Of a stretch of DNA of 64,000 nucleotides, positions 3,291 through 61,848 are shown piece after piece. This stretch comes from an uncultured Clostridia bacterium (lineage in GTDB: Bacteria; Bacillota; Clostridia; TANB77; CAG-508): positions 75,188 through 139,187 of the forward strand of contig CAKPPF010000002.1 in the NCBI GenBank assembly GCA_934177485.1, read 5' to 3'. The notes beneath the pieces were generated by a model that saw only the letters and a list, made by a program, of their open reading frames with translations, did not search any database and was not told where the DNA came from. A program made the position numbers and the translations under genes. How positions within the stretch are numbered: the stretch's first letter is position 1; the number at the start of each line of letters is the position of its first letter.

Positions 3291-4214
3291 ATGCCAAGAA
3301 CTACAAAAGAAGCAAAAACAGAAAATTTAAACAAAGAAGAAACTATTGCAAAGAGTGCTAAAGCTAAAGCTAGTTCAACTACTAAAAAGGCTACAAAAAC
3401 TACTACTTCCAAAGTCAAAAAAACTTCTACAAAAGCATCTTCAAGTAAGTCTAATACTTCTACAAAAAGCACAAAAAAGAAAAGTGCTAGTAGTACCGTT
3501 TCTAAAAAAAGTTCATCTGCTACGACAAAGAAAGCATCAACTAAGAAAAGCACTACTAATGCTACAAAAAGTACAACTAGAAAAACAAGATCTACTAAAA
3601 GCGTAAAAAAATTAGAAGAAAATATTGTTGCTGAATACTATGATTTGCCTTATAGATATAATGAAACAATAGTTAAAATACTATATCAAACTCCAAATGT
3701 ACTTTTTGTTTATTGGGACATTTCAGATTACGATAGAAATAAATTTATTAATGAATATGGAGAAAATTTCTTTAATAATACTGTACCAGTATTAAAGGTA
3801 TTTAATTTAACTAAAAATTATAGTTTTGAAATTGAAATAAATGACTTTGCTAACAGTTGGTATATACATGTAAATGATGCTAATTGTGAATACAAAGTTG
3901 AACTTGGTCGTAAAACAATTAAATATGAAGAAAATATTCATAATGATTATCTTTACATTTCTTCATCTAATGATATTGAATTTCCAAATGACCATATCTT
4001 ATTAGATGAATTACCAAGTAAAGTTAATTTTAGAAATGTAAAAACAAATGAAATTCATACTAAGGATATATCTACTTTACGTTTAATTGGAATTAATAAG
4101 ATATATAAAGTTTATGATTTTTATAAAAGATTTTTCAAAGATGAATTGTTAGAAGATTTAAATACAAATAAAAAGATTATAAACACATCTTCATCCTCAT
4201 CTTCTTGGAATTAG
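3291..4214 (+). CDS. DUF4912-type protein with a ~105 aa Lys/Ser/Thr-rich basic N-terminal tail
   Basis: 307 aa with an AAGGAGG RBS. The C-terminal half (EYYDLPYRYNETIVKILYQTPNVLFVYWDISD...) matches the DUF4912 pattern, a family that typically sits next to GH57 genes. The N-terminus is low-complexity K/S/T/A. Confidence 0.6.
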   Translation: MPRTTKEAKTENLNKEETIAKSAKAKASSTTKKATKTTTSKVKKTSTKASSSKSNTSTKSTKKKSASSTVSKKSSSATTKKASTKKSTTNATKSTTRKTRSTKSVKKLEENIVAEYYDLPYRYNETIVKILYQTPNVLFVYWDISDYDRNKFINEYGENFFNNTVPVLKVFNLTKNYSFEIEINDFANSWYIHVNDANCEYKVELGRKTIKYEENIHNDYLYISSSNDIEFPNDHILLDELPSKVNFRNVKTNEIHTKDISTLRLIGINKIYKVYDFYKRFFKDELLEDLNTNKKIINTSSSSSSWN

Positions 4215-17911: not shown

Positions 17912-17948
17912 ATTTCACCTCAAGAAAAGTGGCTTTGCCACACTTTTC

Positions 17949-18011
17949 TTCTCGCCGATTTGAGTTTCCGAATGAAATGAGGAAATCTCAAAGGCATTAG
18001 CGATTATAGCA
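17949..18011. repeat. 63-nt dispersed hairpin element, copy 1
   Basis: Sequence TTCTCGCCGATTTGAGTTTCCGAATGAAATGAGGAAATCTCAAAGGCATTAGCGATTATAGCA. It differs from copy 2 (54883..54945) at 3 positions: the compensatory C/G pair in the inner stem and one base (T/A) just after AAAGGCA. Confidence 0.8.
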
Positions 18012-18109
18012 TTTTTTGTCGAATAGAAAAATCTTCGATTTTTCCTATTCAACAAAAAAATACTATGCATAATAATGCTATGCATAGTATATTTTTTTGT
18101 CAAGATATT

Positions 18110-19996
18110 TTAATAGTTTTCTTCCTTCTCATTTTTATTATCTTCACTATTGTTTAATATTGCTTGTTCTTTTGTTGTATCTTCTTGTTTCTTTATAGCA
18201 TCTATAATCATTATAAATTTAACATTTCCTTCGTTATTTCCATTTAACATTGTAAAATTATTATATTGTTTTGATAAATTGCTTAATTTTTGTACTCTTG
18301 TTGTTATGTCTTTCACATCTCCATTTATATAATTACAAATTTGTTTTATTCCTTCGTTATTAAATTTTGTCATTCCTTCTGCTAATTCACTTGAGCCATT
18401 ATTTAATTCATTTAATCCTGATGTTAATTCTTCTAATCCACTTCCTAACGTACTCATTTGAGCTGCCACTTTTTTACTTGCTTCTGATTTTACTTTGTTG
18501 CCAACAGTTGTTGCAACAGATGTAGCTGTTTTTTTTGCTGCTAATGTTGTAGCAGATTGAGCTGATGTTAATGCAGTTTGTTCTGCTATTGCTTTTGCAC
18601 TTGCAATACCTTGTTTTTCTATTGTTGTTCTTTGTGCTTCTATTCCTGCATCTGCTTCAGCTTTTATTTGTTTAATTTTTTCATCTGATAAATTTTCTGC
18701 TTGTTTACCAATTGCATTTAATTGTTCCGTTGTTAATTTTGCTTGGTTAGCTGCTTTTAATCCAATTGCTTGTAATTCTTCTTGTGTTAAATTTGGATTT
18801 GCAGTTTTTGCGCTTACCATTGCTGTATTTTTAGCAGTTTTCATTGCAGTTTGTTGTGCCACAGTTTTAGCTGTTTCGTTTGCTGTTTTCTTTGCTGTTG
18901 CAAGAGCTGTTTGTTCTGCTATTGCTTTTGCATTTGCAACAAATTGTTCTTTAATTATATCTGCTTGTGCATCAATCCCAGCATCTGCTGCCACAATAAT
19001 AGCTTGTTTTTGTTCTTCTGTTAATATTGAGCTATCTTCTGCTTGTTTTTCTATTGCAGCTAAAGTTTTTGAGTCTAAAGCACTACTTTTATCTTTTTTT
19101 AAACTTTTTGTTGATTCATTTACTTTGTTTGTTATTTGTTTTGCTCCATCATATGCTGTAGATATACCACTACTTACTTGATTTGAACCTTCTTCTAATT
19201 TATTTGCACTTTCTTGTAATGTATTAACTTTACTATATAAACTATCCATTTTATCAAATAATTTTAAATCATCTTCTTCTATTACTTTCGGAGTTACATA
19301 TGTAATTATACTGCTAGATTCAAAATCTTCTGAATCCATAGTAATTTCAATACTACTTGGTATATCTATTGTTTTTTTACTAACACCTAGACTTTCTTGT
19401 AAACCAGGCATAGCCATTCCTATAACAACTGTTTTACTTCCATCGTTTATTAATTTACCATTTGAAACAGCAATGTTTTTATTGTTATCATTTTTAATTA
19501 TAGTTCCTGCAACAACAACAAATGGTGTGTACATTTTTACATTTTTACCATTAACGTTAACAATATGTGAATCTTTATTTGTATAAGCTAGCGTTATTTT
19601 TACTTTTCCTGATTTACCTGCAAGTTCACTTGCTTCAACTTCTTTTCCATCTAATTCATAACTTACATTGCATTCTATTGGTAAATCTTTTTGACTTTCG
19701 CCTTCGTAGTATATATCTTCTTTATTTGCTTGCCAAATTAATGAATTTTCATCTTGCTCAAATGTTTCATCTCCATTTGTATTTGTAATATTTAATAAAT
19801 CAGATAAATCTTTTAGAGTTTCATCTTCTTTATCATTTTTCAAATGTGTGCTTACAATAGTTTGATATTTGCTACCATTTGCATCTAATTTAGAATACAC
19901 TGTTTCATCTTTTGTATAAGCAAATACTGGTGCAGTATAAGCTGTCATTGTAAGTAATAAAGCTCCTGATATTATCTTTAATCCTTTTTCTTTCAT
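18110..19996 (-). CDS. Secreted YhgE/Pip-domain protein with X-X-X-Leu-X-X-Gly heptad repeats
   Basis: 628 aa with a signal peptide. It contains an internally repeated alpha-helical Ala/Thr/Lys/Gln region and the segment LGSGLEELTSGLNELNNGSSELAEGMTKF. It is encoded directly downstream of the MMPL transporter gene. Confidence 0.55.
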   Translation of the reverse strand: MKEKGLKIISGALLLTMTAYTAPVFAYTKDETVYSKLDANGSKYQTIVSTHLKNDKEDETLKDLSDLLNITNTNGDETFEQDENSLIWQANKEDIYYEGESQKDLPIECNVSYELDGKEVEASELAGKSGKVKITLAYTNKDSHIVNVNGKNVKMYTPFVVVAGTIIKNDNNKNIAVSNGKLINDGSKTVVIGMAMPGLQESLGVSKKTIDIPSSIEITMDSEDFESSSIITYVTPKVIEEDDLKLFDKMDSLYSKVNTLQESANKLEEGSNQVSSGISTAYDGAKQITNKVNESTKSLKKDKSSALDSKTLAAIEKQAEDSSILTEEQKQAIIVAADAGIDAQADIIKEQFVANAKAIAEQTALATAKKTANETAKTVAQQTAMKTAKNTAMVSAKTANPNLTQEELQAIGLKAANQAKLTTEQLNAIGKQAENLSDEKIKQIKAEADAGIEAQRTTIEKQGIASAKAIAEQTALTSAQSATTLAAKKTATSVATTVGNKVKSEASKKVAAQMSTLGSGLEELTSGLNELNNGSSELAEGMTKFNNEGIKQICNYINGDVKDITTRVQKLSNLSKQYNNFTMLNGNNEGNVKFIMIIDAIKKQEDTTKEQAILNNSEDNKNEKEENY

Positions 19997-24472: not shown

Positions 24473-26644
24473 CTATGTTTCTGGTTTTGTTCCTTCTATT
24501 GTAATATACATACTAGATACTTTTCCACTTGCTTGAATACGTACTGATTTTATTTCATCTTTTAGATGTACTTTATAGCCATTTTTTAAGTCATCCCTAG
24601 TAATATTAGTTAATGCATATGAAACATTCACAGTATTTGATCCATCTCTTTTGTGTGTTGCCTGATTCATTTTAGTAGTACTTCCAGTATAAATTGTTGT
24701 AAGAATATTATTAGAATATGTTCCTCCTCCTGATGCTTGGAACTTAAAATGAAGTGTTACTTTACTAATTCTTATTCCTCCATTACTATCTATCGATGTA
24801 TCACCGCTTGGAAGAGCTTTTGCTATTGTATTAGCATCTATTGTAAAAGTTCCCATGTCTACAGTTTTACTTCCAGCTCCTTTATATGATGCGGTGGCAC
24901 TACCTCCATTTAATATTCCAGAGTAGGTACTATTACTATTTGAAGTAAAATAAATATTATTAGTAGTAAATGCTAAATAAGTTCTATCCAAAGATATATT
25001 TAATGTTTGATTTGATGAAACACTATTAATATTTCCAGATTTTGATGTATACAAAGATTTACTAACTGCATAAGTAATGTTTGTTCCATAATCTACTGTA
25101 ACACTTTGAGTTCCTGTACCGCTTGTAAGTTGGGTTCCATCCGATTTTTTAATTGTTACCGTTGCGTCTGATGGTGTTGGATTTATTGTTACTGCGTATG
25201 TGTATATTTTTAATGTAATTGACATAGTTGTCGTTTCATTAATTGTTTTTGATCCTGATTGAGGTGCATATCCAGTTTTTTCTACACTGTAACTTATGGT
25301 ATCTCCATCATATACTGTTAGTTGTTTTGTTGTTTTTCCATTTATTTTAACAGTGGCATCTGATGGTGTTGGTTTTATTGTTACTACCCAGATTTTCTTT
25401 AAGGTAACATTAATTGTCTCTCCCTTTGTAACAGTTATATTTTCCTTAGTTACTGACTCGTATCCAGATTTTTCTACTAAATAACTTAACTTGTCTCCTT
25501 CTTCTAATGTTATTGAATTTCTTGTTGTTCCATTAATTTTTATTGTTGCATCCGATGGCGTTGCATTTATTATTATTGTACATGGTTTTTTTAGTGTAAT
25601 AGTTATTTCTTTATCTGATGTTATCATTTCAACACCTTGTTTAGTATTGTATCCTTCTTTTTCAGCTGAATAAGCTATTTGTGTTCCATGTTCAATTAAA
25701 ATTCCACTATCTGTTATGGTTGTTCCATTTACTTTTCTGGTTACTCCTGTTAATATTTCTCCATTTATATCAAGCACATTTAATTTTACAGTATATTTCT
25801 TTTTTTCGAGTCTTATATTGCTTACTTGTTTATTTTCAGTTATATTTTCAACTCTTCCATTTATATCGTTATATCCTTCTTTACTTACTTTATATGATAT
25901 GGTATCTCCATAGCTAACAGTAATCTCTTGAGATCCTTTTCCGATTTGTAACTCATTTCCAGAAGAATCATATATAGTCACTATTGCTTCGCTGTCTTCC
26001 ACAAATATTTTAACAGTATATTTTAAAATTTCTAGATTAACATTTATGGTAGAATCATTTTGGCCTAAAACCATTGTATTTGTTTGACTTTGGTAACCTT
26101 CACAACTTACAGTATATGTTATATGTGATCCTTTATAGTCTTCTAATGTTACTTCCCCAGTACCATAAGCAGTTCTCCCTGTGTTCATAGATTCTATGTT
26201 TATGTATGAATTTTCTGGTTTTGCTTTTATAGTTATAGAACTTTTTGAAGTATCTATTATAATTTCAGATTCATCTTTATTTGTGCTTACATTTCCACTG
26301 TTTATATATAATTTATATCGTCTGCCTTTTTTTGATTCTATTGAAATATAATTTCCGTCTTCACTTAAAGATGCAAACTTGCACCAATCATTTCCTGTAA
26401 TTTGTTCTAGCAATTTATTTTTATTTTCCACTGTTTCAATATTGCCTAGCTCTTTTTGTTTCATATATTCAAGCTTAATTTTTTCCGCAACCTGCAAATC
26501 TTCATAATCATATAAAATGTCTTCTGTTTTATCTATAACTTTATTTCCTTGTGTAACATTAATTGTTACAGTTGCTAATATTGTTAATACAACTAATATA
26601 ATTATTAATGCAATTAATGTTATTCCTCTATTATTCTTAAGCAT
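24473..26644 (-). CDS. Large surface protein with a prepilin-like N-terminus and about six PEGA-like repeats
   Basis: 723 aa. The N-terminus MLKNNRG-ITLIALIIILVVLTILATV resembles a class III signal but has Ala, not Glu, at +5. The repeated ~70 aa units (e.g. TIKINGTTRNSITLEEGDKLSYLVEKSGYESV) fit the PEGA domain. Confidence 0.55.
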   Translation of the reverse strand: MLKNNRGITLIALIIILVVLTILATVTINVTQGNKVIDKTEDILYDYEDLQVAEKIKLEYMKQKELGNIETVENKNKLLEQITGNDWCKFASLSEDGNYISIESKKGRRYKLYINSGNVSTNKDESEIIIDTSKSSITIKAKPENSYINIESMNTGRTAYGTGEVTLEDYKGSHITYTVSCEGYQSQTNTMVLGQNDSTINVNLEILKYTVKIFVEDSEAIVTIYDSSGNELQIGKGSQEITVSYGDTISYKVSKEGYNDINGRVENITENKQVSNIRLEKKKYTVKLNVLDINGEILTGVTRKVNGTTITDSGILIEHGTQIAYSAEKEGYNTKQGVEMITSDKEITITLKKPCTIIINATPSDATIKINGTTRNSITLEEGDKLSYLVEKSGYESVTKENITVTKGETINVTLKKIWVVTIKPTPSDATVKINGKTTKQLTVYDGDTISYSVEKTGYAPQSGSKTINETTTMSITLKIYTYAVTINPTPSDATVTIKKSDGTQLTSGTGTQSVTVDYGTNITYAVSKSLYTSKSGNINSVSSNQTLNISLDRTYLAFTTNNIYFTSNSNSTYSGILNGGSATASYKGAGSKTVDMGTFTIDANTIAKALPSGDTSIDSNGGIRISKVTLHFKFQASGGGTYSNNILTTIYTGSTTKMNQATHKRDGSNTVNVSYALTNITRDDLKNGYKVHLKDEIKSVRIQASGKVSSMYITIEGTKPET

Positions 26645-45158: not shown

Positions 45159-46940
45159 TTAGTCGCTTTGTTCTTTATCACTATATTTAGCAAATGCTAC
45201 TTTTCTTAAGTTCTTATTTGCTTCTATTACTTGTATTTTTACTTTATCTCCTATTTTATATACTATTCCTGTGTTTTCTCCTATTAGTTGCTTGTGCATG
45301 TCATCATAGTTAAAATACTCATTGCCTAAATTTTCAAACCTTATTAGTCCCTCTACTGTATTTTCTAGCTCAACAAAAAGTCCAAAGTTGGTAACTCCAC
45401 TTACTATTCCATCATACACTTCTCCTATTTTATTTTCCATATATTCAGCCTTTTTCAAATCAACTGAGTTTCTTTCAGCTTTTTGAGCTATTTTTTCTCT
45501 TTCTGATGATTTTTCTGCATAGTTTACAGCAAATTCTTCATGTTTTTCTTTGTAATCGTCACTAACCATATAGTTATTATCTAAATACTTTGATATTATT
45601 CTATGAATAAATAAATCTGGGTATCTTCTAATTGGTGATGTAAAATGGCAATAATACTTTCCTGCAATACCAAAGTGTCCTTTATTTTCTGCTTCATATC
45701 TTGCTACTTTTAAAGTTCTTAATATTAAATTAGATATAACTTTTTCTTCATCTTTTCCTTTTATATCCTCAAGAATACTGCTAAAAGCTTTAGGATGAAC
45801 ATTTTCTTTGTTTCCTTTTATTTTATATCCGAAGTTGTATAAAAAACTATTTAAGTCTGTTATCTTCTCTTGATCTGGTGCCTCATGAACTCTATAAATA
45901 AACGGTGCTTCTAGCCAATAAAATTTTTCTGCAACTGTTTCGTTAGCTGTTAGCATAAATTGTTCTATTATTATATTTGAAAATTCAATCTCATATTTTC
46001 CAACGTCTATTGCTTTTCCTTTTTTATCTAAAGTAATTTTACTTTCCGGAATATCTAAGTCTAAATATCCATTTTCTTTTCTCTTATTTTCAAGAATATG
46101 AGCAAGTTCTGCCATTAGTTTAAAATGATTTATATATGGAATATATTGTTTTAAATCTTCATCCATTTCAGCACTATTATCTAAATCCAAAAGCTTTTGA
46201 ACAATGTTATAAGACATTCTTTTAGTTACTTTTATTACGCCTTTTGTGATATCAGAAGATATTACATTCCCTTTTTTATCTATCTCCATTATAACAGATA
46301 AAGTAAGTCTATCTTTTCCTTCATTTAAACTGCATATTCCATTTGATAATTCTTTTGGCAACATAGGAATTACTCTATCTAGCATATATACACTTGTTCC
46401 TCTTGTAATAGCTTCTTTGTCTAGAAAGCTTCCTTCCATTACATAGTGACTTACATCAGCAATATGAACACTTAAAATGTATGTGTCATCTATTGTTTTA
46501 GTTACAGATACAGCATCATCCAAATCTTTTGCATCTTCACCATCTATTGTAAATATTTCTTCATTTCTAAAATCTTTTCTTCCTGCAATTTCATCTAAAG
46601 ATATTTCTTTTTCTATTTTTCTTGCTTCATCTATTACAAATTTTGGAAACTCATATGGTAATTTATACTCTCTTATAATTGAAAGCATATCAACACCAGC
46701 AATATTTATATTGCCTAATATTTCAATAATTTTTCCTTCTGGCTTCTTTCCATCAATTTCTGGTTTAGTAATTTGAACAACAACTTTATCGTTGCTTTTT
46801 GCCCCACTAAAATACTTTTTAGATATGAAAATATCTTTACTAATTTTTTTATTATCTGGCACAACAAATCCGAAACTTTTATTTTTAGTAAAAGTTCCAA
46901 CAATAGTTTCTTTTGTATTTTCTTCTTTATTATTTCTCAT
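45159..46940 (-). CDS. rnr: Ribonuclease R
   Basis: It has an RNB domain (DGEDAKDLDDAVS, HFTSPIRRYPD) and a C-terminal S1 domain. I chose the start at ATG 46940 (MRNNKEE, AAGGA upstream). The track ORF extends to 47021 but would translate the conserved hairpin element. Confidence 0.9.
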   Translation of the reverse strand: MRNNKEENTKETIVGTFTKNKSFGFVVPDNKKISKDIFISKKYFSGAKSNDKVVVQITKPEIDGKKPEGKIIEILGNINIAGVDMLSIIREYKLPYEFPKFVIDEARKIEKEISLDEIAGRKDFRNEEIFTIDGEDAKDLDDAVSVTKTIDDTYILSVHIADVSHYVMEGSFLDKEAITRGTSVYMLDRVIPMLPKELSNGICSLNEGKDRLTLSVIMEIDKKGNVISSDITKGVIKVTKRMSYNIVQKLLDLDNSAEMDEDLKQYIPYINHFKLMAELAHILENKRKENGYLDLDIPESKITLDKKGKAIDVGKYEIEFSNIIIEQFMLTANETVAEKFYWLEAPFIYRVHEAPDQEKITDLNSFLYNFGYKIKGNKENVHPKAFSSILEDIKGKDEEKVISNLILRTLKVARYEAENKGHFGIAGKYYCHFTSPIRRYPDLFIHRIISKYLDNNYMVSDDYKEKHEEFAVNYAEKSSEREKIAQKAERNSVDLKKAEYMENKIGEVYDGIVSGVTNFGLFVELENTVEGLIRFENLGNEYFNYDDMHKQLIGENTGIVYKIGDKVKIQVIEANKNLRKVAFAKYSDKEQSD

Positions 46941-46976
46941 TGATTCAAAAATTCCTTTTTTGTATTTTAAAATTTG

Positions 46977-47040
46977 TTCTCGCCCAATTTGAGTTTTCTG
47001 GCTGTAAGGAAAAAATCTCAAAAGGCCAGCGATTGTAGCT
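46977..47040. repeat. 63-nt dispersed hairpin element, copy 3 (diverged)
   Basis: Sequence TTCTCGCCCAATTTGAGTTTTCTGGCTGTAAGGAAAAAATCTCAAAAGGCCAGCGATTGTAGCT. The flanks and outer stem match copies 1 and 2. The inner stem is changed to TTTTC/GAAAA and the loop is different. Confidence 0.7.
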
Positions 47041-47095
47041 TATTATATAATAAAAGTAGAGCCATATTAGCTCTACTTTTAATATTTTTTTCTTA

Positions 47096-48890: not shown

Positions 48891-48923
48891 AACCAGCCTA
48901 AACTTGGCACGTTCCTTTTCGAG
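48891..48923 (-). repeat. 33-nt fragment of the tRNA-Leu-associated module (distal island boundary)
   Basis: AACCAGCCTAAACTTGGCACGTTCCTTTTCGAG is identical to the interior of module A (49627-49659). Similarity is lost on both sides. Confidence 0.7.
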
Positions 48924-49429: not shown

Positions 49430-49552
49430 AGATGTATTCTTTATAAAAATACTTTGAACGATACGCCACATTTCTGTGGTATCTCATCTTTCTACAATTA
49501 TTATACTCAAAATATATAAAAAAGTCAATAATTTATAAATTTTTTCATCAAC

Positions 49553-49740
49553 TGGTGGGTCCACTCGCACCCGCGTCACAAAAATAGTCCACCGGACTAT
49601 TTTTACCTGCGTTTAGTCTGGCCTTGAACCAGCCTAAACTTGGCACGTTCCTTTTCGAGTCCCACCTTTTTACTTTATACAAAAAATGTAACCTACAAGG
49701 TTACATTTTCTCTGGTATGATTGTTGTAGTTATCTACAAC
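49553..49740 (-). repeat. tRNA-Leu-associated module, copy A
   Basis: It contains the 113-nt structured core, the hairpin AAAAAATGTAACCTACAAGGTTACATTTT, and a degenerate tRNA 3'-end relic (CTGGTATGATTGTTGTAGTTATCTACAAC). Confidence 0.8.
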
Positions 49741-51015: not shown

Positions 51016-51180
51016 TTAATTGTATTTTTTTAGTTTTTTATTCTTTTCTTTTTCTAATTGTATCAAACTCTTTTTAGGTGTTGGTAAGTTTTTTGGCATA
51101 GTTCCACTATTTTTTGCAATGATTTCTCTAATATTTTTTTCAAATATTATAATGAGTTTTATTTGCTTCTTTTTCAGTTT
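51016..51180 (-). pseudogene. 3' remnant (about 54 codons) of a DinD-like DNA-damage-inducible protein gene
   Basis: My own translation gives ...NIREIIAKNSGTMPKNLPTPKKSLIQLEKEKNKKLKKYN*, which resembles the DinD C-terminus (..ELGGTMPEELPTPQVSIKQLE). The frame is cut exactly at the edge of module B. Confidence 0.45.
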
Positions 51181-51377
51181 GTACCGATGGTGGGTCCACT
51201 CGCACCCGCGTCACAAAAATAGTCCACCGGACTATTTTTACCTGCGTTTAGTCTGGCCTTGGACCAGCCTAAACTTGGCACGTTCCTTTTCGAGTCCCAC
51301 CTTTTTACTTTATACAAAAAATGTAACCTATAAGGTTACATTTTAATCTGGTACGATTAGTGTAGTAGTTTACAACC
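51181..51377 (-). repeat. tRNA-Leu-associated module, copy B
   Basis: It starts GTACCGATGGTGGGT (a copy of the tRNA 3' end). The core is near-identical to copies A and C. The terminator hairpin is followed by the relic CTGGTACGATTAGTGTAGTAGTTTACAACC. Confidence 0.8.
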
Positions 51378-52299: not shown

Positions 52300-53168
52300 T
52301 TATCTATAAAAATCATCTTTTTCTTTTTCACCATTTATTTTGTTATATTCTTTTTTATCTATAATATCATTCATATATAAATCATTAGTTACATCTTGGT
52401 ATTTTTCTTTATCTCCAAATAATCCTTTTACTTTATCACTTATATGGTTTATAATCTTTTCAAATTTTTCTTTCCAATATTCTAACTTTTCTTTTAATTG
52501 CTCTATTTTTTTTTAGTGATGATATTTCTTCTTCTTTTTCATCTAGTTCTGATTTTAAATTTCTTATTTCATTATTTTGATTTTTTATTTCTTTATTAAG
52601 TTCATCTATGTACTTGTGGTTTTCTTCAAAGTCTTCTTTTATTTTATCTACTGATAATGAGTAATTTGTAATCTCTTTAAAGTCATTATTTGATTTATTT
52701 ACTTCTTCTATATAGTCTAATATTAAATCTTTATTTTTATTATATAAAAGTAAGTTCTTATTTGATAGAGGTTGATTTTTTAGATTATTAATAATATCTC
52801 TTATTTCTTCTGATTTGGTATTTAATTTATTTGTTTGATTATTTAGTTTGTTTATTTTTTGTCTTTGTTTATTATAGTTTTTCTTTAATTCATTATAGTC
52901 TTCCATTTGACTTACTCTATAATCAATATTTCTTCCTTTTTGTTTTTCTTTTAATACTGCATTTAAGCCATATACTTTATTAAATGAGTTAATACATCTT
53001 TCTCTCATTTTATCTTGTATTTTAGGTAGATTATCTTTTGTAAATACACTACATTTTCCTACTTGTTTTTTCATACCTGTTTTACAATTTTCTTTTACTG
53101 CAACACCTACTATATGTAGATGTGGTGAAGCCTCATCAAAATGTATGGTTGCGTTAGCTACTTTAAAT
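52300..53168 (-). pseudogene. Mob/Pre (MOBV) plasmid-recombination relaxase, 5'-truncated and frameshifted
   Basis: It retains the HxDExxPHxH motif (IHFDEASPHLHIVGV) but lacks the ~120 N-terminal residues, being cut at module C. The frame breaks at the T9 run at 52506-52514. The alternative frame continues as LKKIEQLKEKLEYWKEKFEKIINHISDKVK... to the stop at 52300. Confidence 0.7.
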
Positions 53169-53339
53169 TCTGGTACCGATGGTGGGACCACTCGCACTCG
53201 CGTCACAAAAATAGTCCACCGGACTATTTTTACCTGCGTTTAGTCTGGCCTTGGACCAGCCTAAACTTGGCACGTTCCTTTTCGAGTCCCACCTTTTTAC
53301 TTTATACAAAAAATGTAACCTACAAGGTTACATTTTCTC
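53169..53339 (-). repeat. tRNA-Leu-associated module, copy C (abuts the intact tRNA)
   Basis: TCTGGTACCGATGGTGGGAC at 53169-53188 is an exact 20-nt direct repeat of 53338-53357 (tRNA 3' end plus flank). The structured core is at 53181-53293, and the tRNA terminator hairpin is at about 53306-53334. Confidence 0.85.
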
Positions 53340-53422
53340 TGGTACCGATGGTGGGACTCGAACCCACATGGTTTCCCGCTGGATTTTGAGTCCAGTGCGT
53401 CTACCAATTCCGCCACATCGGC
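53340..53422 (-). tRNA. tRNA-Leu (anticodon CAA) with encoded CCA
   Basis: The minus strand reads GCCGATGTGGCGGAATTGGTAGACGCACTGGACTCAAAATCCAGCGGGAAACCATGTGGGTTCGAGTCCCACCATCGGTACCA. The cloverleaf has a 7-bp acceptor stem, anticodon stem CTGGA/TCCAG with loop CUCAAAA, a long variable arm and a GTGGG-TTCGAGT-CCCAC T arm. Confidence 0.9.
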
Positions 53423-53921: not shown

Positions 53922-54760
53922 TTATTTTATTATTTCCTTTATTTTATCTAAATTTTCTATAACAGCATTATAACCGTATTTATAACAAGAGTCAAGTTTT
54001 TGAGTATCTAACAGACCTGTTTTATCTGTATATACATTCAAAACAAAATTTGCTTTATTTAAATTTTCTTCCGAGATTTTACTTCCCATTATATCTATTG
54101 TTTTCATTGTCATATCCATTATATTGCTATCTTTAGTTATTTCATCACTATTAAATTTAACCCCGATTACAATATCTGCTCCTTGTTTTTTTACTTCATT
54201 TACTGGAACATTGTCTAAAGCACCACCATCTATAAATGCATGTTCTTTATATTCACATGGGCTAAATACCGCAGAAAAACTACTACTAGCTCGTATTGCT
54301 TTTCCTATGTTTACATCTGTTATATATGTGCTACTATTTTCTGGTGCATTATTTGTAAATATATATTCTTTGCAATCTATCAAATCTACTGTTGGTATTA
54401 CTAATGGCATATTTACATCTTTTATATTGTATATTCCTTGTTTGTTTATAACCTTGTCAAATATCTTCTCAATACTATCTCCTGTTTTTAACCCTTTTAA
54501 TGTTAATTTTTTACTTATTAAATAATTTTTGATTATTGGTTTTGCATTTATTTTTGCTATTTCTTTTGCGTATTTTTTAAATAAATTATATATTTTTTCT
54601 GGTGAATACCCCACAGCATATAATGAAGCTATCATGCTTCCTGAACTTGTTCCGACCGTATTACACTTACTTTTATATTATTATCTTCTAACGCTTTTAA
54701 AACTCCTGCATGTGCAATTCCACGTATTCCACCGCCAGATAAGGCTAACCCAACTTTCAT
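53922..54760 (-). pseudogene. Patatin-like phospholipase, interrupted by a 1-nt frameshift
   Basis: ATG 54760 (AAGGAG RBS) opens MKVGLALSGGGIRGIAHAGVLKALEDNNIKVSVI, which then stops. The GxSxG nucleophile motif (VGTSSGSMIASLYA) continues in another frame into the 53922..54635 ORF. The total length of 839 nt is not a multiple of 3. The break lies near 54658-54663. Confidence 0.7.
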
Positions 54761-54882
54761 ATGTATATAAACTCCTTTTTAGAATTTATATATATTATTC
54801 ACAAAACTAGATTTGTTTAAACAGTTAATTATGTCTTCTTTATGTCCAATTTATAAACAAAGCTACTTCATGTTGCCCTTTG

Positions 54883-54945
54883 TTCTCGCCGATTTGAGTT
54901 TGCGAATGAAATGAGCAAATCTCAAAGGCAATAGCGATTATAGCA
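54883..54945. repeat. 63-nt dispersed hairpin element, copy 2
   Basis: Sequence TTCTCGCCGATTTGAGTTTGCGAATGAAATGAGCAAATCTCAAAGGCAATAGCGATTATAGCA. Its inner stem is TTTGC/GCAAA, versus TTTCC/GGAAA in copy 1. Confidence 0.8.
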
Positions 54946-55030
54946 TTTTATATAGTAGGAATTTCGGAGAAATTTCCTACTATATAAAATAGACGAGAGC
55001 CTTGCAACGGCTCCCGTCCAACAGAACAAA

Positions 55031-60590: not shown

Positions 60591-60603
60591 AATACTTAAA
60601 TTT

Positions 60604-60626
60604 CAGAGGCAATAGCGATTGTAGCT
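60604..60626. repeat. Partial copy (3'-flank block only) of the 63-nt hairpin element
   Basis: CAGAGGCAATAGCGATTGTAGCT matches CAAAGGCAATAGCGATTATAGCA of copy 2. The hairpin part is absent. Confidence 0.55.
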
Positions 60627-60663
60627 TTTCATATAATAGGAAAGGAACAAATTTCTTTGTTCC

Positions 60664-61848
60664 CTATTCTCCACAAATATGTTTTCTTGTAAGTTCAAGT
60701 AAATTCAATTTTGAAAATCCAATTATTTGTGTTTTTGTTCTGTCCTTTTTTAATTCTTCACTTAAAATTTGTATTATTTTTTCTTTGTCTTCTTCTGATT
60801 TCATGTCTATATAGTCAATAATAATAATTCCACCTATATCGCGAATTTTTAACTGTTTTGCAATTTCTATACTTGCTTCTTTATTTACTTTATATATTGT
60901 TGTTTCTACATTATCAATTCCAATATATTTTCCAGAGTTAACATCTATTGCTGTTAACGCCTCTGTTTTATCTATTGTTATAAATCCTCCACATTTTAGC
61001 CATATTTTTCTTTTTTCTGATTTTTCTATTTGGCTAGCTAATGATGGCTTTATTTCAGCTATATCATCATCTATTAAGTTAACTTCTATGTTATTAACAT
61101 TAAATTCTTTTAGAGTTTTTAATATATATTCATAATCTTCTTTTGAATTAACCGTAATTTTTTCTAAATCTTTATCAACTAAGTCGATTAATAATTTTTT
61201 TATTACTGTGTGTGATTTATATATTAATTTTGGAGAACTACTATTTTTTATACTTTCGTTATATATTCTCCATATATTATTCCATTTATCTATTGAAATT
61301 TCTATATCTTTTTTTATTATTTCTTCTGTTTTGCCTTGAGCTGAAGTTCTGATTATTGCTCCACAATTTTGTGGCAGATACTTTTTAACTATTTGAGTTA
61401 ATCTCTCTTTTTCCGTTTCATCTGTAATTTTTTGTGATATTGTTACAATAGTAGTGTTAGGCATAAATACTATATATCTTGTATTTAATGATATATGAGT
61501 TGATACCTTTGCACCTTTTGATTGAGTAAAATCTCTTTTTACTTGAACTAAAATTGGCTCCCCAACTTTTAAAATTTCTTTAATTTTTATTTCTTGTTCT
61601 TTTTTTCCATCTTTAACATCCACCTTAGGAAGAATATCTTTTAGATGTATAAAAGTGTTCTTTTTTTGTCCAATATTTACAAAAGCAGATTGCATTCCTT
61701 GTAATACATTTTCAACTCTTCCAATATATATATTTCCTTCAATTCTATTTGTGTTATTATCTTCTTTGTATTTTTCTGCTAATTCACCATTTTCTAATAG
61801 CATTATTTGCTTTTCGTTGCTTTTTTTATTTATTACTAGCTCTTTCAT
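60664..61848 (-). CDS. rng: Rne/Rng-family ribonuclease (RNase G-like)
   Basis: 394 aa with the N-terminal S1 domain (GNIYIGRVENVLQGMQSAFVNIGQKKNTFIHL) and the catalytic region (ALTAIDVNSGKY...GGIIIIDYIDM). Confidence 0.8.
   Translation of the reverse strand: MKELVINKKSNEKQIMLLENGELAEKYKEDNNTNRIEGNIYIGRVENVLQGMQSAFVNIGQKKNTFIHLKDILPKVDVKDGKKEQEIKIKEILKVGEPILVQVKRDFTQSKGAKVSTHISLNTRYIVFMPNTTIVTISQKITDETEKERLTQIVKKYLPQNCGAIIRTSAQGKTEEIIKKDIEISIDKWNNIWRIYNESIKNSSSPKLIYKSHTVIKKLLIDLVDKDLEKITVNSKEDYEYILKTLKEFNVNNIEVNLIDDDIAEIKPSLASQIEKSEKRKIWLKCGGFITIDKTEALTAIDVNSGKYIGIDNVETTIYKVNKEASIEIAKQLKIRDIGGIIIIDYIDMKSEEDKEKIIQILSEELKKDRTKTQIIGFSKLNLLELTRKHICGE

Follow-up and report, generated by a model that had tools for sequence, protein, structure and literature searches.

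The repeat and its copies at the locus

We examined a window of 64,000 nucleotides (nt) from an uncultured Clostridia bacterium (assembly GCA_934177485.1, contig CAKPPF010000002.1, positions 75,188 to 139,187), in which a preliminary description made from the letters alone had pointed out a 63-nt intergenic hairpin. This hairpin, called H1 below, forms the middle part of a longer interspersed repeat, which is non-coding and measures about 127-136 nt. All copies in the window lie between minus-strand genes and the element is therefore read on the minus strand. The neighbouring genes had been named as AlkD-like, patatin-like and RNase R, and PF08713 together with the other Pfam matches agreed with these names. 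For RNase R the domains RNB, CSD2 and S1 were found; its start codon (46938-46940) is located 41 nt past H1 of the third copy, and by reading, the terminator of the gene upstream of this copy was placed at 47052-47080. The fourth copy follows directly after an RNase E/G gene (Pfam) and lies upstream of an open reading frame (ORF) of 96 aa.

The pattern TTTGAGN{15,35}CTCAAAN{5,6}AGCGATTRTAGC matched the window exactly at 17959-18010, 46988-47039 and 54893-54944, where shuffled sequences predicted 0.00 matches. The flank AGCGATTRTAGC alone gave a further match at 60614-60625, and CTCAAAGGCAATAGCGATTATAGC with at most three mismatches gave three sites in the window, compared with 0 expected. Three hairpin copies and one flank fragment are thus present where they had been reported, and their inner stems read TTTCC/GGAAA, TTTGC/GCAAA and TTTTC/GAAAA, as described. 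The length of 63 nt had to be corrected: when the copies were aligned with their flanks, the conserved block was ~136 nt long, so the real repeat is double the reported unit.

On the sense strand (the minus strand of the window) the parts follow in the order T-run, H0, unpaired box, H1, H2. H0 is an AT-rich palindrome, TATATAsTAGGAAAttt...aaaTTTCCTAsTATATA, followed by AAAAA. The unpaired box between H0 and H1 reads (T)GCTAyAATCGCTAtt. H1 is the reported hairpin, with closing pairs GCC/GGC and a 2-bp apical helix on top, between TC/TC mismatches. H2, a GC-cored terminator-like hairpin with the 3' end TTTGTTCT, comes after H1 in about 75-90% of copies and exists in three subtypes, of which subtype iii, present in copy 1 of the window, was also found in five loci of other genomes (L031, L036, L074, L090 and L106; such loci are numbered with the prefix L throughout). 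The two ends of the element are dissimilar (ATA-sTAGG on the left, GCTTTGTTCT on the right), and no ORF was found within the ~130-nt unit. The coordinates of all copies and their parts are collected in Table 1.

Table 1. Copies of the repeat in the window, their parts and the terminators that they adjoin (RBS, ribosome-binding site)
Feature	Position	Strand	Evidence and remarks
Copy 1, full (H0, box, H1, H2)	17921-18059	-	nhmmer, model positions 2-135, E=2e-32
Copy 1, location	between terminator of 628-aa ORF and RBS of AlkD-like gene (PF08713 DNA_alkylation)	-	
Copy 1, H0, AT-rich palindrome, 20-nt arms, variant TTTTTTGTTGAATAGGAAAAATC...	18012-18059	-	inverted repeat 18012-18031/18040-18059, 90% complementary
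Copy 1, box GCTATAATCGCTAAT, unpaired	17996-18010	-	-10-like hexamer TATAAT at 18003-18008; TG just upstream, 18010-18011
Copy 1, H1, GCC-TTTGAG-A-TTTCC / GGAAA-CTCAAA-TC-GGC	17954-17995	-	fold and pair counts
Copy 1, H2, subtype iii (GAAGAAAAGTGTGGCAAAGCCACTTTTCTTG)	17921-17951	-	called terminator-like on both strands; tail overlaps RBS of AlkD-like gene
Terminator of the gene upstream of copy 1 (target site)	18060-18090	-	13 pairs, then TTTTTTGTTG; T-tail runs directly into copy 1
Copy 2, full	54853-54989	-	nhmmer, model positions 3-136, E=7.6e-36; inverted repeats
Copy 2, parts	H0 54946-54989; box 54930-54944 (hexamer 54937-54942); H1 54888-54929; degenerate H2 54853-54885	-	
GC-rich terminator of upstream 134-aa ORF, abutting copy 2 (target site)	54990-55020	-	12 pairs, 7 GC; tail TTTTATATAG
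Copy 3, degenerate/partial	46970-47057	-	nhmmer, model positions 30-117, E=1.3e-17
Copy 3, parts	box 47028-47039 (TACAAT) and H1 46982-47027 kept; H0 core and H2 lost	-	
Copy 4, fragment	60597-60668	-	nhmmer, model positions 15-77, E=5.8e-10
Copy 4, parts	H0-like palindrome 60626-60668; box 60610-60625 (TACAAT); H1 5' arm only, 60598-60610	-	

A pattern scan of species-representative genomes found the element in at least 110 stretches and at least 48 assemblies among the matches listed. The hosts are nearly all metagenome-assembled genomes (MAGs) from the gut labelled 'uncultured Clostridia bacterium', low in GC and about 1.5-1.7 Mb in size; they include two closed MAG chromosomes of 1.70 Mb (OZ006978) and 1.55 Mb (OV788638), as well as Clostridium sp. 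CAG:452. The family is specific to this lineage of uncultured low-GC gut Clostridia with small genomes. With a hidden Markov model (HMM) of the ~136-nt block, nhmmer identified 267 copies in the fetched loci (1.74 Mb in all), and 168 of these were full length. In the window the HMM matched at 17923-18058 and 54855-54989 (full) and at 46970-47057 and 60597-60656 (partial). The density was about 1 per 48 kb in the fetched loci, with the locus-defining copy left out, and 1 per 16 kb in the window (4 per 64 kb), which corresponds to tens of copies per genome.

Covariation of the stems

The inner stem had been noticed to differ between the three window copies and yet always to pair. Three copies are too few to establish covariation, and we counted it on 75 distinct full copies from other genomes; the paired cells in this set are not independent events. 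Standard pairs occupied 96.7% of the cells, whereas in shuffles the value was 88.4% and with slid partners it fell to 33-47%. Changes on both sides were seen at 16 pairs, and there were 222 double-change cells where 58 were expected. At the inner-stem position flagged earlier the pair was C-G in 38 copies, U-A in 24 and G-C in 12; the apical pair of H1 was A-U in 36, C-G in 34 and G-C in 3. The outer stem of H1 appeared invariant only because the search pattern demanded it. Compensatory changes were present in H0, H1 and H2 alike, and in H0, where 7 of the 12 pairs had changed on both sides, the covariation was at least as strong as elsewhere. The covariation first noticed in three copies is thus borne out, and the structures are clearly under selection, acting in RNA, in single-stranded DNA or as cruciforms. 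The covariation cannot be credited to an RNA that begins at the box, because H0, which is upstream of the putative start, covaries as strongly, and because both strands fold equally.

Placement behind terminator tails

The T-run at the 5' end of nearly every full copy proved to be the tail of a separate, gene-specific and GC-richer hairpin, the intrinsic terminator of the upstream gene. Such a hairpin abutted the T-run in 100 of 112 copies. The 46 nt upstream folded with a minimum free energy (MFE) of -8 kcal/mol or lower in 77% of copies, compared with 5.7% of random windows, and windows ahead of other TTTTT[AG]T sites also seldom reached this value. The result was repeated with 88 of 104 genome copies and with 46 of 53 copies from an independent metagenome scan, so that about 85-90% of copies start exactly at the T-tail of a gene-specific terminator hairpin. 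The distance from this stem to the insertion point, when taken from MFE folds, is confounded by pairing between A-tracts and T-tracts. Every copy had been said to sit directly after the terminator of a gene; the upstream terminator does abut the element, but some of the adjoining 'terminators' turned out to be H0, the palindrome of the element itself. The hairpin that is targeted may also be H2 of a resident copy, which gives tandem copies.

Gene context was taken from simple greedy ORF calls. The upstream gene was co-directional with the element in 86 cases and opposite in 21, and its stop codon, when co-directional, was mostly 70-110 nt ahead of the box. Between co-directional genes 59 copies were in sense and 9 in antisense orientation, while 20 copies were found between convergent and 10 between divergent genes; about 30% of copies therefore face no gene start (the 20 convergent and the 9 antisense ones). 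No copy was clearly within a coding region, as the 22 flagged overlaps were either 5' extensions of ORFs into the element or very short ORFs. Random orientation and insertion inside genes, which had been named as findings that would speak against a selected element, were thus not observed. Whether replication or transcription underlies the orientation bias could not be read from the local GC skew, which was uninformative and merely follows the coding strand.

Two copies are located between a T-box attenuator and an essential aminoacyl-tRNA synthetase gene. In L060 the T-box occupies 3599-3823, the element 3840-3972, and pheS starts at 4023; in L092 the T-box is at 1822-2045 and the element at 2067-2201, followed by ileS (stretch 1822-2570). 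Both T-boxes scored at the Rfam gathering threshold and end 17-22 nt before the element. Since copies are found behind T-box attenuators too, the placement goes with 'stem plus T-tail' and not just with any harmless stretch past a gene. At these two loci, transcripts that read through the T-box would have to cross three additional hairpins, or else the box of the element may now drive pheS and ileS.

Filled and empty sites

Three pairs of filled and empty sites were found in close relatives with flanks 88-99% identical, and each differs by a precise indel of about 127 nt. In the pair L030 (filled) and L035 (empty), with flanks 94-99% identical, the empty site consists of an H2-like terminator followed at once by the ribosome-binding site (RBS), and the filled site adds H0 through H2. 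The flanks of L066 and L013 are 97-98% identical. In L154 and L168 (flanks 88-93%) the filled site reads ...CCTTC-TTTTAAT, then ATACTAGG...GCTTTGTTCT, then AATGTT, and the empty one ...TTTTAAT directly followed by AATGTT; the junction is ambiguous by at most 2 nt. Over the three pairs, a TA ambiguity of up to 2 nt was seen in L030/L035 and L154/L168 and none in L066/L013. The pairs delimit the unit as roughly ATA-sTAGG...GTTCT, placed right after a T-rich terminator tail, with a boundary that is uncertain by about 2 nt; in 76 copies the sequence past GTTC(T) was variable. The unit is therefore a discrete unit of insertion or deletion. No consistent target duplication was seen in the three pairs, and a search for terminal inverted repeats in both full window copies returned only the internal arms of H0, H1 and H2. 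A further candidate for an empty site, L226/L157, was rejected, as its flanks were too diverged to align.

It should be mentioned that L013 (3602-3613, compared with 806-1437 in L066) also lacks the 5' three-quarters of a gene for a CxxC membrane protein downstream of a copA-like ATPase; judged by its sequence, this appears to be a second, independent deletion at the same spot.

Tandem arrangements were observed as well. Two full copies follow each other in L138, and elements directly after the H2 tail of another element were also found in L019, L005 and L007. Copies within one assembly were on average 87.7% identical (up to 97-98%, and 97% in OZ006978), whereas between assemblies the mean was 78.3%. 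No split copy with an ORF between the left and right halves was present in the fetched loci. Carriage by phages or plasmids was limited to a single match, on a 5-kb IMG/VR contig. At the site of copy 1 no strain-level polymorphism could be seen, all six contigs found (6/6) sharing one arrangement.

The box and degenerate copies

The conservation of the box was determined on a second sample, taken from metagenomes, for which only the 3' side of H1 and the 5' side of H2 served as anchors, so that the box was not selected for (72 distinct copies). In this sample GCTAyAATCGCTA was about 90% conserved at every position except position 3 of the hexamer, which is T or C. Position 3 is the one that matters least in a -10 hexamer. 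In subfamily A the box reads TGCTATAAT (an extended -10), and the forms TGCTATAAT or GCTACAAT were about 90% conserved. The -10-like box (TG)CTAyAAT that had been singled out in the window is accordingly a conserved part of the family. A start 6-8 nt past the hexamer would leave 0-3 unpaired nt before H1, and such a spacing is what 5'-terminal stabilising stem-loops need in Firmicutes, as known from studies of mRNA decay in B. subtilis. From the sequence, the chances that the box is an active promoter seem to us roughly even.

According to the preliminary description, H1 would form the extreme 5' end of the downstream mRNA. This may apply at best to a minority of degenerate copies; in the others H2 usually follows, and about 30% of copies have no gene start ahead. 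With H2 behind it in most copies, H1 would as a rule stand at the head of a short transcript (about 85 nt) or of one that is attenuated, and not simply of the downstream mRNA. There are copies in which H2, and sometimes H0, has been lost and an RBS and start codon lie 28-60 nt past H1 (L097 before nrdD, L104, L016 and copy 3 of the window). Directly upstream of these decayed copies is a terminator or H0, and there is nothing else between the upstream terminator and the gene. That the box and H1 persist right ahead of an RBS makes a promoter plausible and speaks for a function in some of the copies. In L097 the order is box, H1, GGCGAGAACAAAGGAGG, 9 nt and the ATG of nrdD (sense 1859-1940; about 28 nt before the start). 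An intact H2 is common even right before genes, and the tail of H2 of copy 1 overlaps the RBS of the AlkD-like gene. The most economical description may be a self-contained promoter-hairpin-terminator cassette, insulated on both sides and at times co-opted when H2 erodes.

Two side observations concern nrdD and the box. The 5' arm of the former H2 in L097 now supplies the RBS of nrdD, and the upstream regions of nrdD in the orthologous loci L027, L090 and L083 are without the element. In L045 (6015-6149) and its ortholog L048, H0 is extended outward and a -10-like box is present on both sides (ATTATAGC...H0...GCTACAAT), which means that H0 can be flanked by divergent boxes; unrelated sequence follows the second one.

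Discussion

We read the element as an interspersed repeat that targets terminator tails and that probably represents a new family of miniature mobile elements. It would have spread, now or formerly, by recombination or transposition directed by hairpins or structure and supplied in trans. The step supplied in trans would recognise 'stem plus T-tail', a signal that the 3' end of the element (H2 plus TTTGTTCT) seems to mimic. The box, H1 and H2 might then work as a self-insulated mini transcription unit, the box as an extended -10 promoter, H1 as a 5'-terminal stem-loop and H2 as a terminator; this would explain how the element comes to be tolerated. After decay of H2, the neighbouring gene could use the box and H1 as its promoter and 5' leader, as for copy 3 and RNase R or for L097 and nrdD.

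A number of results weigh against this reading. The folds do not single out a strand: wobble counts were 56 for G-U and 40 for A-C, and the MFE on the two strands was -45.4 and -42.8 kcal/mol, with z of -5.2 and -5.3. The L030/L035 pair could also have arisen by deletion between 11-nt direct repeats. In 240 of 246 orthologous comparisons the site was occupied in both genomes, and the site of copy 2 is occupied in L020, L088 and L003 with flanks only 72-84% identical; shared occupancy across such diverged flanks indicates that many copies are old and stable, and would also fit elements selected by the host. All-against-all clustering of 807 neighbouring ORFs revealed no recurrent transposase. 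No match to IS608 TnpA was obtained by tblastn in 0.85 Mb of fetched loci (with an approximate query sequence), no RAYT was found in the 0.85-1.74 Mb examined, and a regular-expression search for motifs of group II reverse transcriptases returned none in 1.74 Mb. As to the box, subfamily B reads AGCTACAAT, without TG, and a simple sigma-70 scan of the window copies gave no -35 partner. The decay of H2 before genes was not significant (73% compared with 84% canonical, p=0.30) and is a trend only.

Near the elements, the sole recombinase-like family was a large serine recombinase of about 614 aa (L008 4700-6544 and four other loci). No link between it and the repeat was established, and from its sequence it is probably the integrase of a prophage or of an integrative and conjugative element.

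The element could also be, though in our opinion rather improbably, a structural repeat of the REP/BIME or SPRITE type, which the host would select because it strengthens termination, protects the 3' ends of upstream mRNA or is bound by a nucleoid protein, with homogenisation by gene conversion in place of transposition. Such a repeat would be expected immediately 3' of genes and co-oriented with them, as most copies are, and the explanation also accommodates an H2 that is terminator-like on both strands, the equal folding of both strands, the many sites shared despite flanks at 72-84% identity, and the homogeneity of copies within a genome. The resident terminators, however, already look competent, which would make a second one redundant, and an additional terminator would be harmful between a T-box attenuator and an essential synthetase gene. 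The precise presence or absence of 127 nt with junction homology of at most 2 nt (L154/L168) and the tandem self-insertions are also at odds with this explanation.

A family of small RNA genes, in which each copy would be a promoter-H1-H2 unit making a trans-acting small RNA of about 85 nt, selection would maintain the function of this RNA and the spread would be secondary, is improbable. The order of an extended -10 box, a hairpin and a GC-cored hairpin ending in a U-tail is the expected one; conservation of the box is strong, and about 20 copies are situated between convergent genes, where a promoter for a neighbour makes no sense. Yet H0, which would be outside such a transcript, is equally conserved and covaries equally. 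The loop of H1 and the sequence of H2 differ freely between genomes, H2 in three subtypes, and there is thus no conserved seed. Thirty to one hundred copies per 1.6-Mb genome would be extreme for an RNA gene, no Rfam match was obtained, and the precise targeting of terminator tails would be left unexplained.

We consider a cis-regulatory leader, that is, a riboswitch or protein-binding attenuator with H1 as sensor, H2 as terminator and a regulon downstream, to be very unlikely. In copy 1 of the window the order of hairpin, terminator-like hairpin and RBS is as such a leader would have it, and by reading, one subfamily would allow pairing between the 5' end of H1 (GCCCTTTG) and CAAAGGGC, which lies in the 5' arm of H2. 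The downstream genes, among them AlkD-like, patatin-like, RNase R, pheS, ileS, nrdD and der, are not related to one another, some 30% of copies have no gene start ahead, and the loop of H1 is not conserved; a riboswitch regulon was rejected on this gene context. In addition, conservation extends over the whole 130 nt with its spacers, as is usual for repeats but not for regulons. A scan of the whole window against Rfam 15 at the gathering threshold returned tRNA-Leu only, and a scan of copy 2 at E up to 10 gave noise only, of 10-18 bits, in line with the earlier remark that the hairpin matches no known riboswitch or leader family. A leader peptide running through H1 was also rejected, since its frame and start codon vary from one subfamily to the next. 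Chance similarity or an assembly artefact, for which only the AT-rich, low-complexity background could be cited, can practically be dismissed, as shuffles expect zero matches and the family is present in hundreds of independent contigs from many studies and in two closed MAG chromosomes.

Comparison with known repeats and mobile elements

The suggestion that the hairpin is an intergenic mini-repeat of the Correia or BOX kind was a good one: the element is short, non-coding and multi-copy, and shows presence and absence at three sites. By its kind it belongs with the small interspersed repeats, alongside SPRITE, BOX and RUP, Correia, REP/BIME and bcr1. Its signature sequences are absent from 8 million searchable papers.

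SPRITE, BOX and RUP of Streptococcus pneumoniae are shorter than 200 nt, AT-rich and non-coding, with predicted stem-loops; SPRITE, in which a U-rich tract comes after a long duplex, is enriched near the 3' ends of coding sequences, BOX is modular, and the pneumococcal repeats are inserted beside or within each other (Croucher et al. 2011, PMC3049150). The element resembles them as a small AT-rich repeat of Firmicutes, and its H0 and H2 subtypes reassort much as the BOX modules do. The likeness to SPRITE is architectural only and lies in the H2 stem with its U-rich tract and in the position at gene 3' ends. Unlike the pneumococcal repeats, the element has three separate hairpins and a conserved unpaired -10-like box, and it occurs in a different lineage. 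BOX and RUP have terminal inverted repeats and target duplications; here the terminal repeats are lacking and no consistent target duplication was seen. In addition, it is placed precisely at the end of the T-tail of a resident terminator, with an orientation bias of 87%, whereas about 61-63% of the pneumococcal repeats are on the leading strand.

Correia elements carry 26-bp terminal inverted repeats, a TA duplication and an IHF site. These elements of Neisseria (CREE/NEMIS) are multi-copy, often close to gene starts, and contain sigma-70-like promoter sequences able to drive neighbouring genes (PMC10969869). The repeat described here is likewise a multi-copy mini-element with a promoter-like box, but Correia's defining features were not seen in it, and Correia elements form one long hairpin and do not target terminators. 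REP sequences are extragenic palindromes of 20-40 nt, GC-rich, with an invariant GTAG or CGTC tag; most of them lie downstream of genes, where the ORFs on either side are co-directional or convergent (PMC3733652). REP/BIME palindromes are mobilised by RAYT, transposases of the Y1 (IS200/IS605) type, and PATEs derive from IS200/IS605. With REP/BIME and PATEs the element shares the absence of terminal inverted repeats and of a consistent target duplication and a strand-specific, hairpin-directed logic, and some H0 variants start with GTAGG. H0, however, is AT-rich with ~20-nt arms, and the tag position varies (column 12: A 34, C 28, G 11). The ends of IS200/IS605 elements and PATEs have similar subterminal hairpins, both bound by one TnpA, and insertion is oriented, 3' of a short target. 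H0 and H2 are unrelated to each other; oriented insertion after a defined flank does agree. [quoted passage not shown]

To our knowledge, the targeting of terminator tails is otherwise found only in class C (IIC) group II introns. Like these, the element is inserted after terminators, in an oriented manner and without a consistent target duplication, and the T-tail of its 5' flank is complementary to an internal A-rich segment, which is reminiscent of the EBS-IBS (exon-binding and intron-binding site) pairing of IIC introns. Unlike them it is only 130 nt long and has no ribozyme domains, no GUGYG...AY ends and no intron ORF, and Rfam showed no group II intron in the window or in 16 loci. The bcr1 repeat of the Bacillus cereus group is MITE-like, about 155 nt long, transcribed, with a stable predicted fold, and often co-transcribed at gene ends. 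Its ends are reported to carry TTTAT direct repeats, and no such duplication was seen at the three filled/empty pairs.

A possible guide segment

The A-rich segment TATATAAAAA just upstream of the box suggests a more specific idea, namely mobile DNA guided by structure and base pairing, in which this segment would pair with the T-tail of the terminator. We put it forward tentatively and think it unlikely rather than likely. The outer half of the H0 palindrome would then be a guide-target duplex, formed at the product end of intrinsic terminators, roughly at the point where terminated transcripts stop, and the 3' end (H2 plus TTTGTTCT) would recreate the target, leading to tandem growth and to a self-insulated promoter-hairpin-terminator cassette. 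The mobilising enzyme could be an HUH nuclease, a recombinase or an RNA-guided system, possibly a new one. Guide-target pairing occurs in IS200/IS605.

The pairs of H0 differ in a way that bears on this idea. From position -5 inward, counted back from the box, at least 95% of pairs are Watson-Crick, with abundant covariation. In the outer 3-4 pairs we counted about 36 cells with deviations on the 5' (flank) side only and about 6 on the 3' side only, and about 10 that were compensated; these counts are thin evidence, as alignment registers vary. The variant TTAA was found on both arms in at least six independent loci, among them the polymorphic L154. Such asymmetric outer pairs, together with TTAA on both arms, would be expected of an internal segment that picks out terminator tails complementary to it. 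The empty sites already possess the T-tail (L030/L035, and TTTTAAT in L154/L168).

Meaning of the family

The repeat family is undescribed and without an Rfam match, and it marks a widespread lineage of uncultured gut Clostridia with very small genomes. Terminator-tail targeting, even between T-box attenuators and essential aminoacyl-tRNA synthetase genes, is here a property of a non-coding element of 130 nt. If the box is active, transcription would be rewired at tens of loci per genome: T-box control would be bypassed, terminators would be added, and genes such as rnr and nrdD would receive promoters with 5' stem-loops. In the annotation of these MAGs, the family accounts for many spurious ORF extensions, with TTG or ATG starts within H1. 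It may also offer a compact natural cassette of promoter, stabiliser and terminator.

Other features of the window

The patatin-like gene downstream of copy 2 is split (53922-54760, minus strand) into an ORF of 42 aa (54632-54760) with a GGGxRG motif and an ORF of 237 aa in another frame (53922-54635), which covers positions 39-189 of the Patatin profile. The split would be due to a frameshift or an assembly error, or mark a pseudogene. Upstream of copy 1, the 628-aa ORF contains internal direct repeats with units of 131 and 48 nt (18561-19056) and has no Pfam match, and a 723-aa ORF (24473-26644, minus strand) contains 45-nt repeat cores with a period of 192 nt (25149-25577). Both are probably repeat-domain proteins.

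Another repeat, of 183 nt, is present three times (49527-49709, 51162-51344 and 53154-53336; 89-93% identical), beside tRNA-Leu(CAA) at 53340-53422 on the minus strand, and its 33-nt core is found at a fourth site (48891-48923). On the minus strand the 183-nt units end in GCGGGTGCGAGTGGACCCACCA, similar to a tRNA 3' end, and the terminator that comes next is the one that also follows the real tRNA-Leu. The genes between the units encode a DUF1963 protein, an Imm33-like immunity protein and a Mob_Pre fragment. Judging from this arrangement, the 183-nt repeats look like tandem integrations of small mobile islands at the 3' end of tRNA-Leu.

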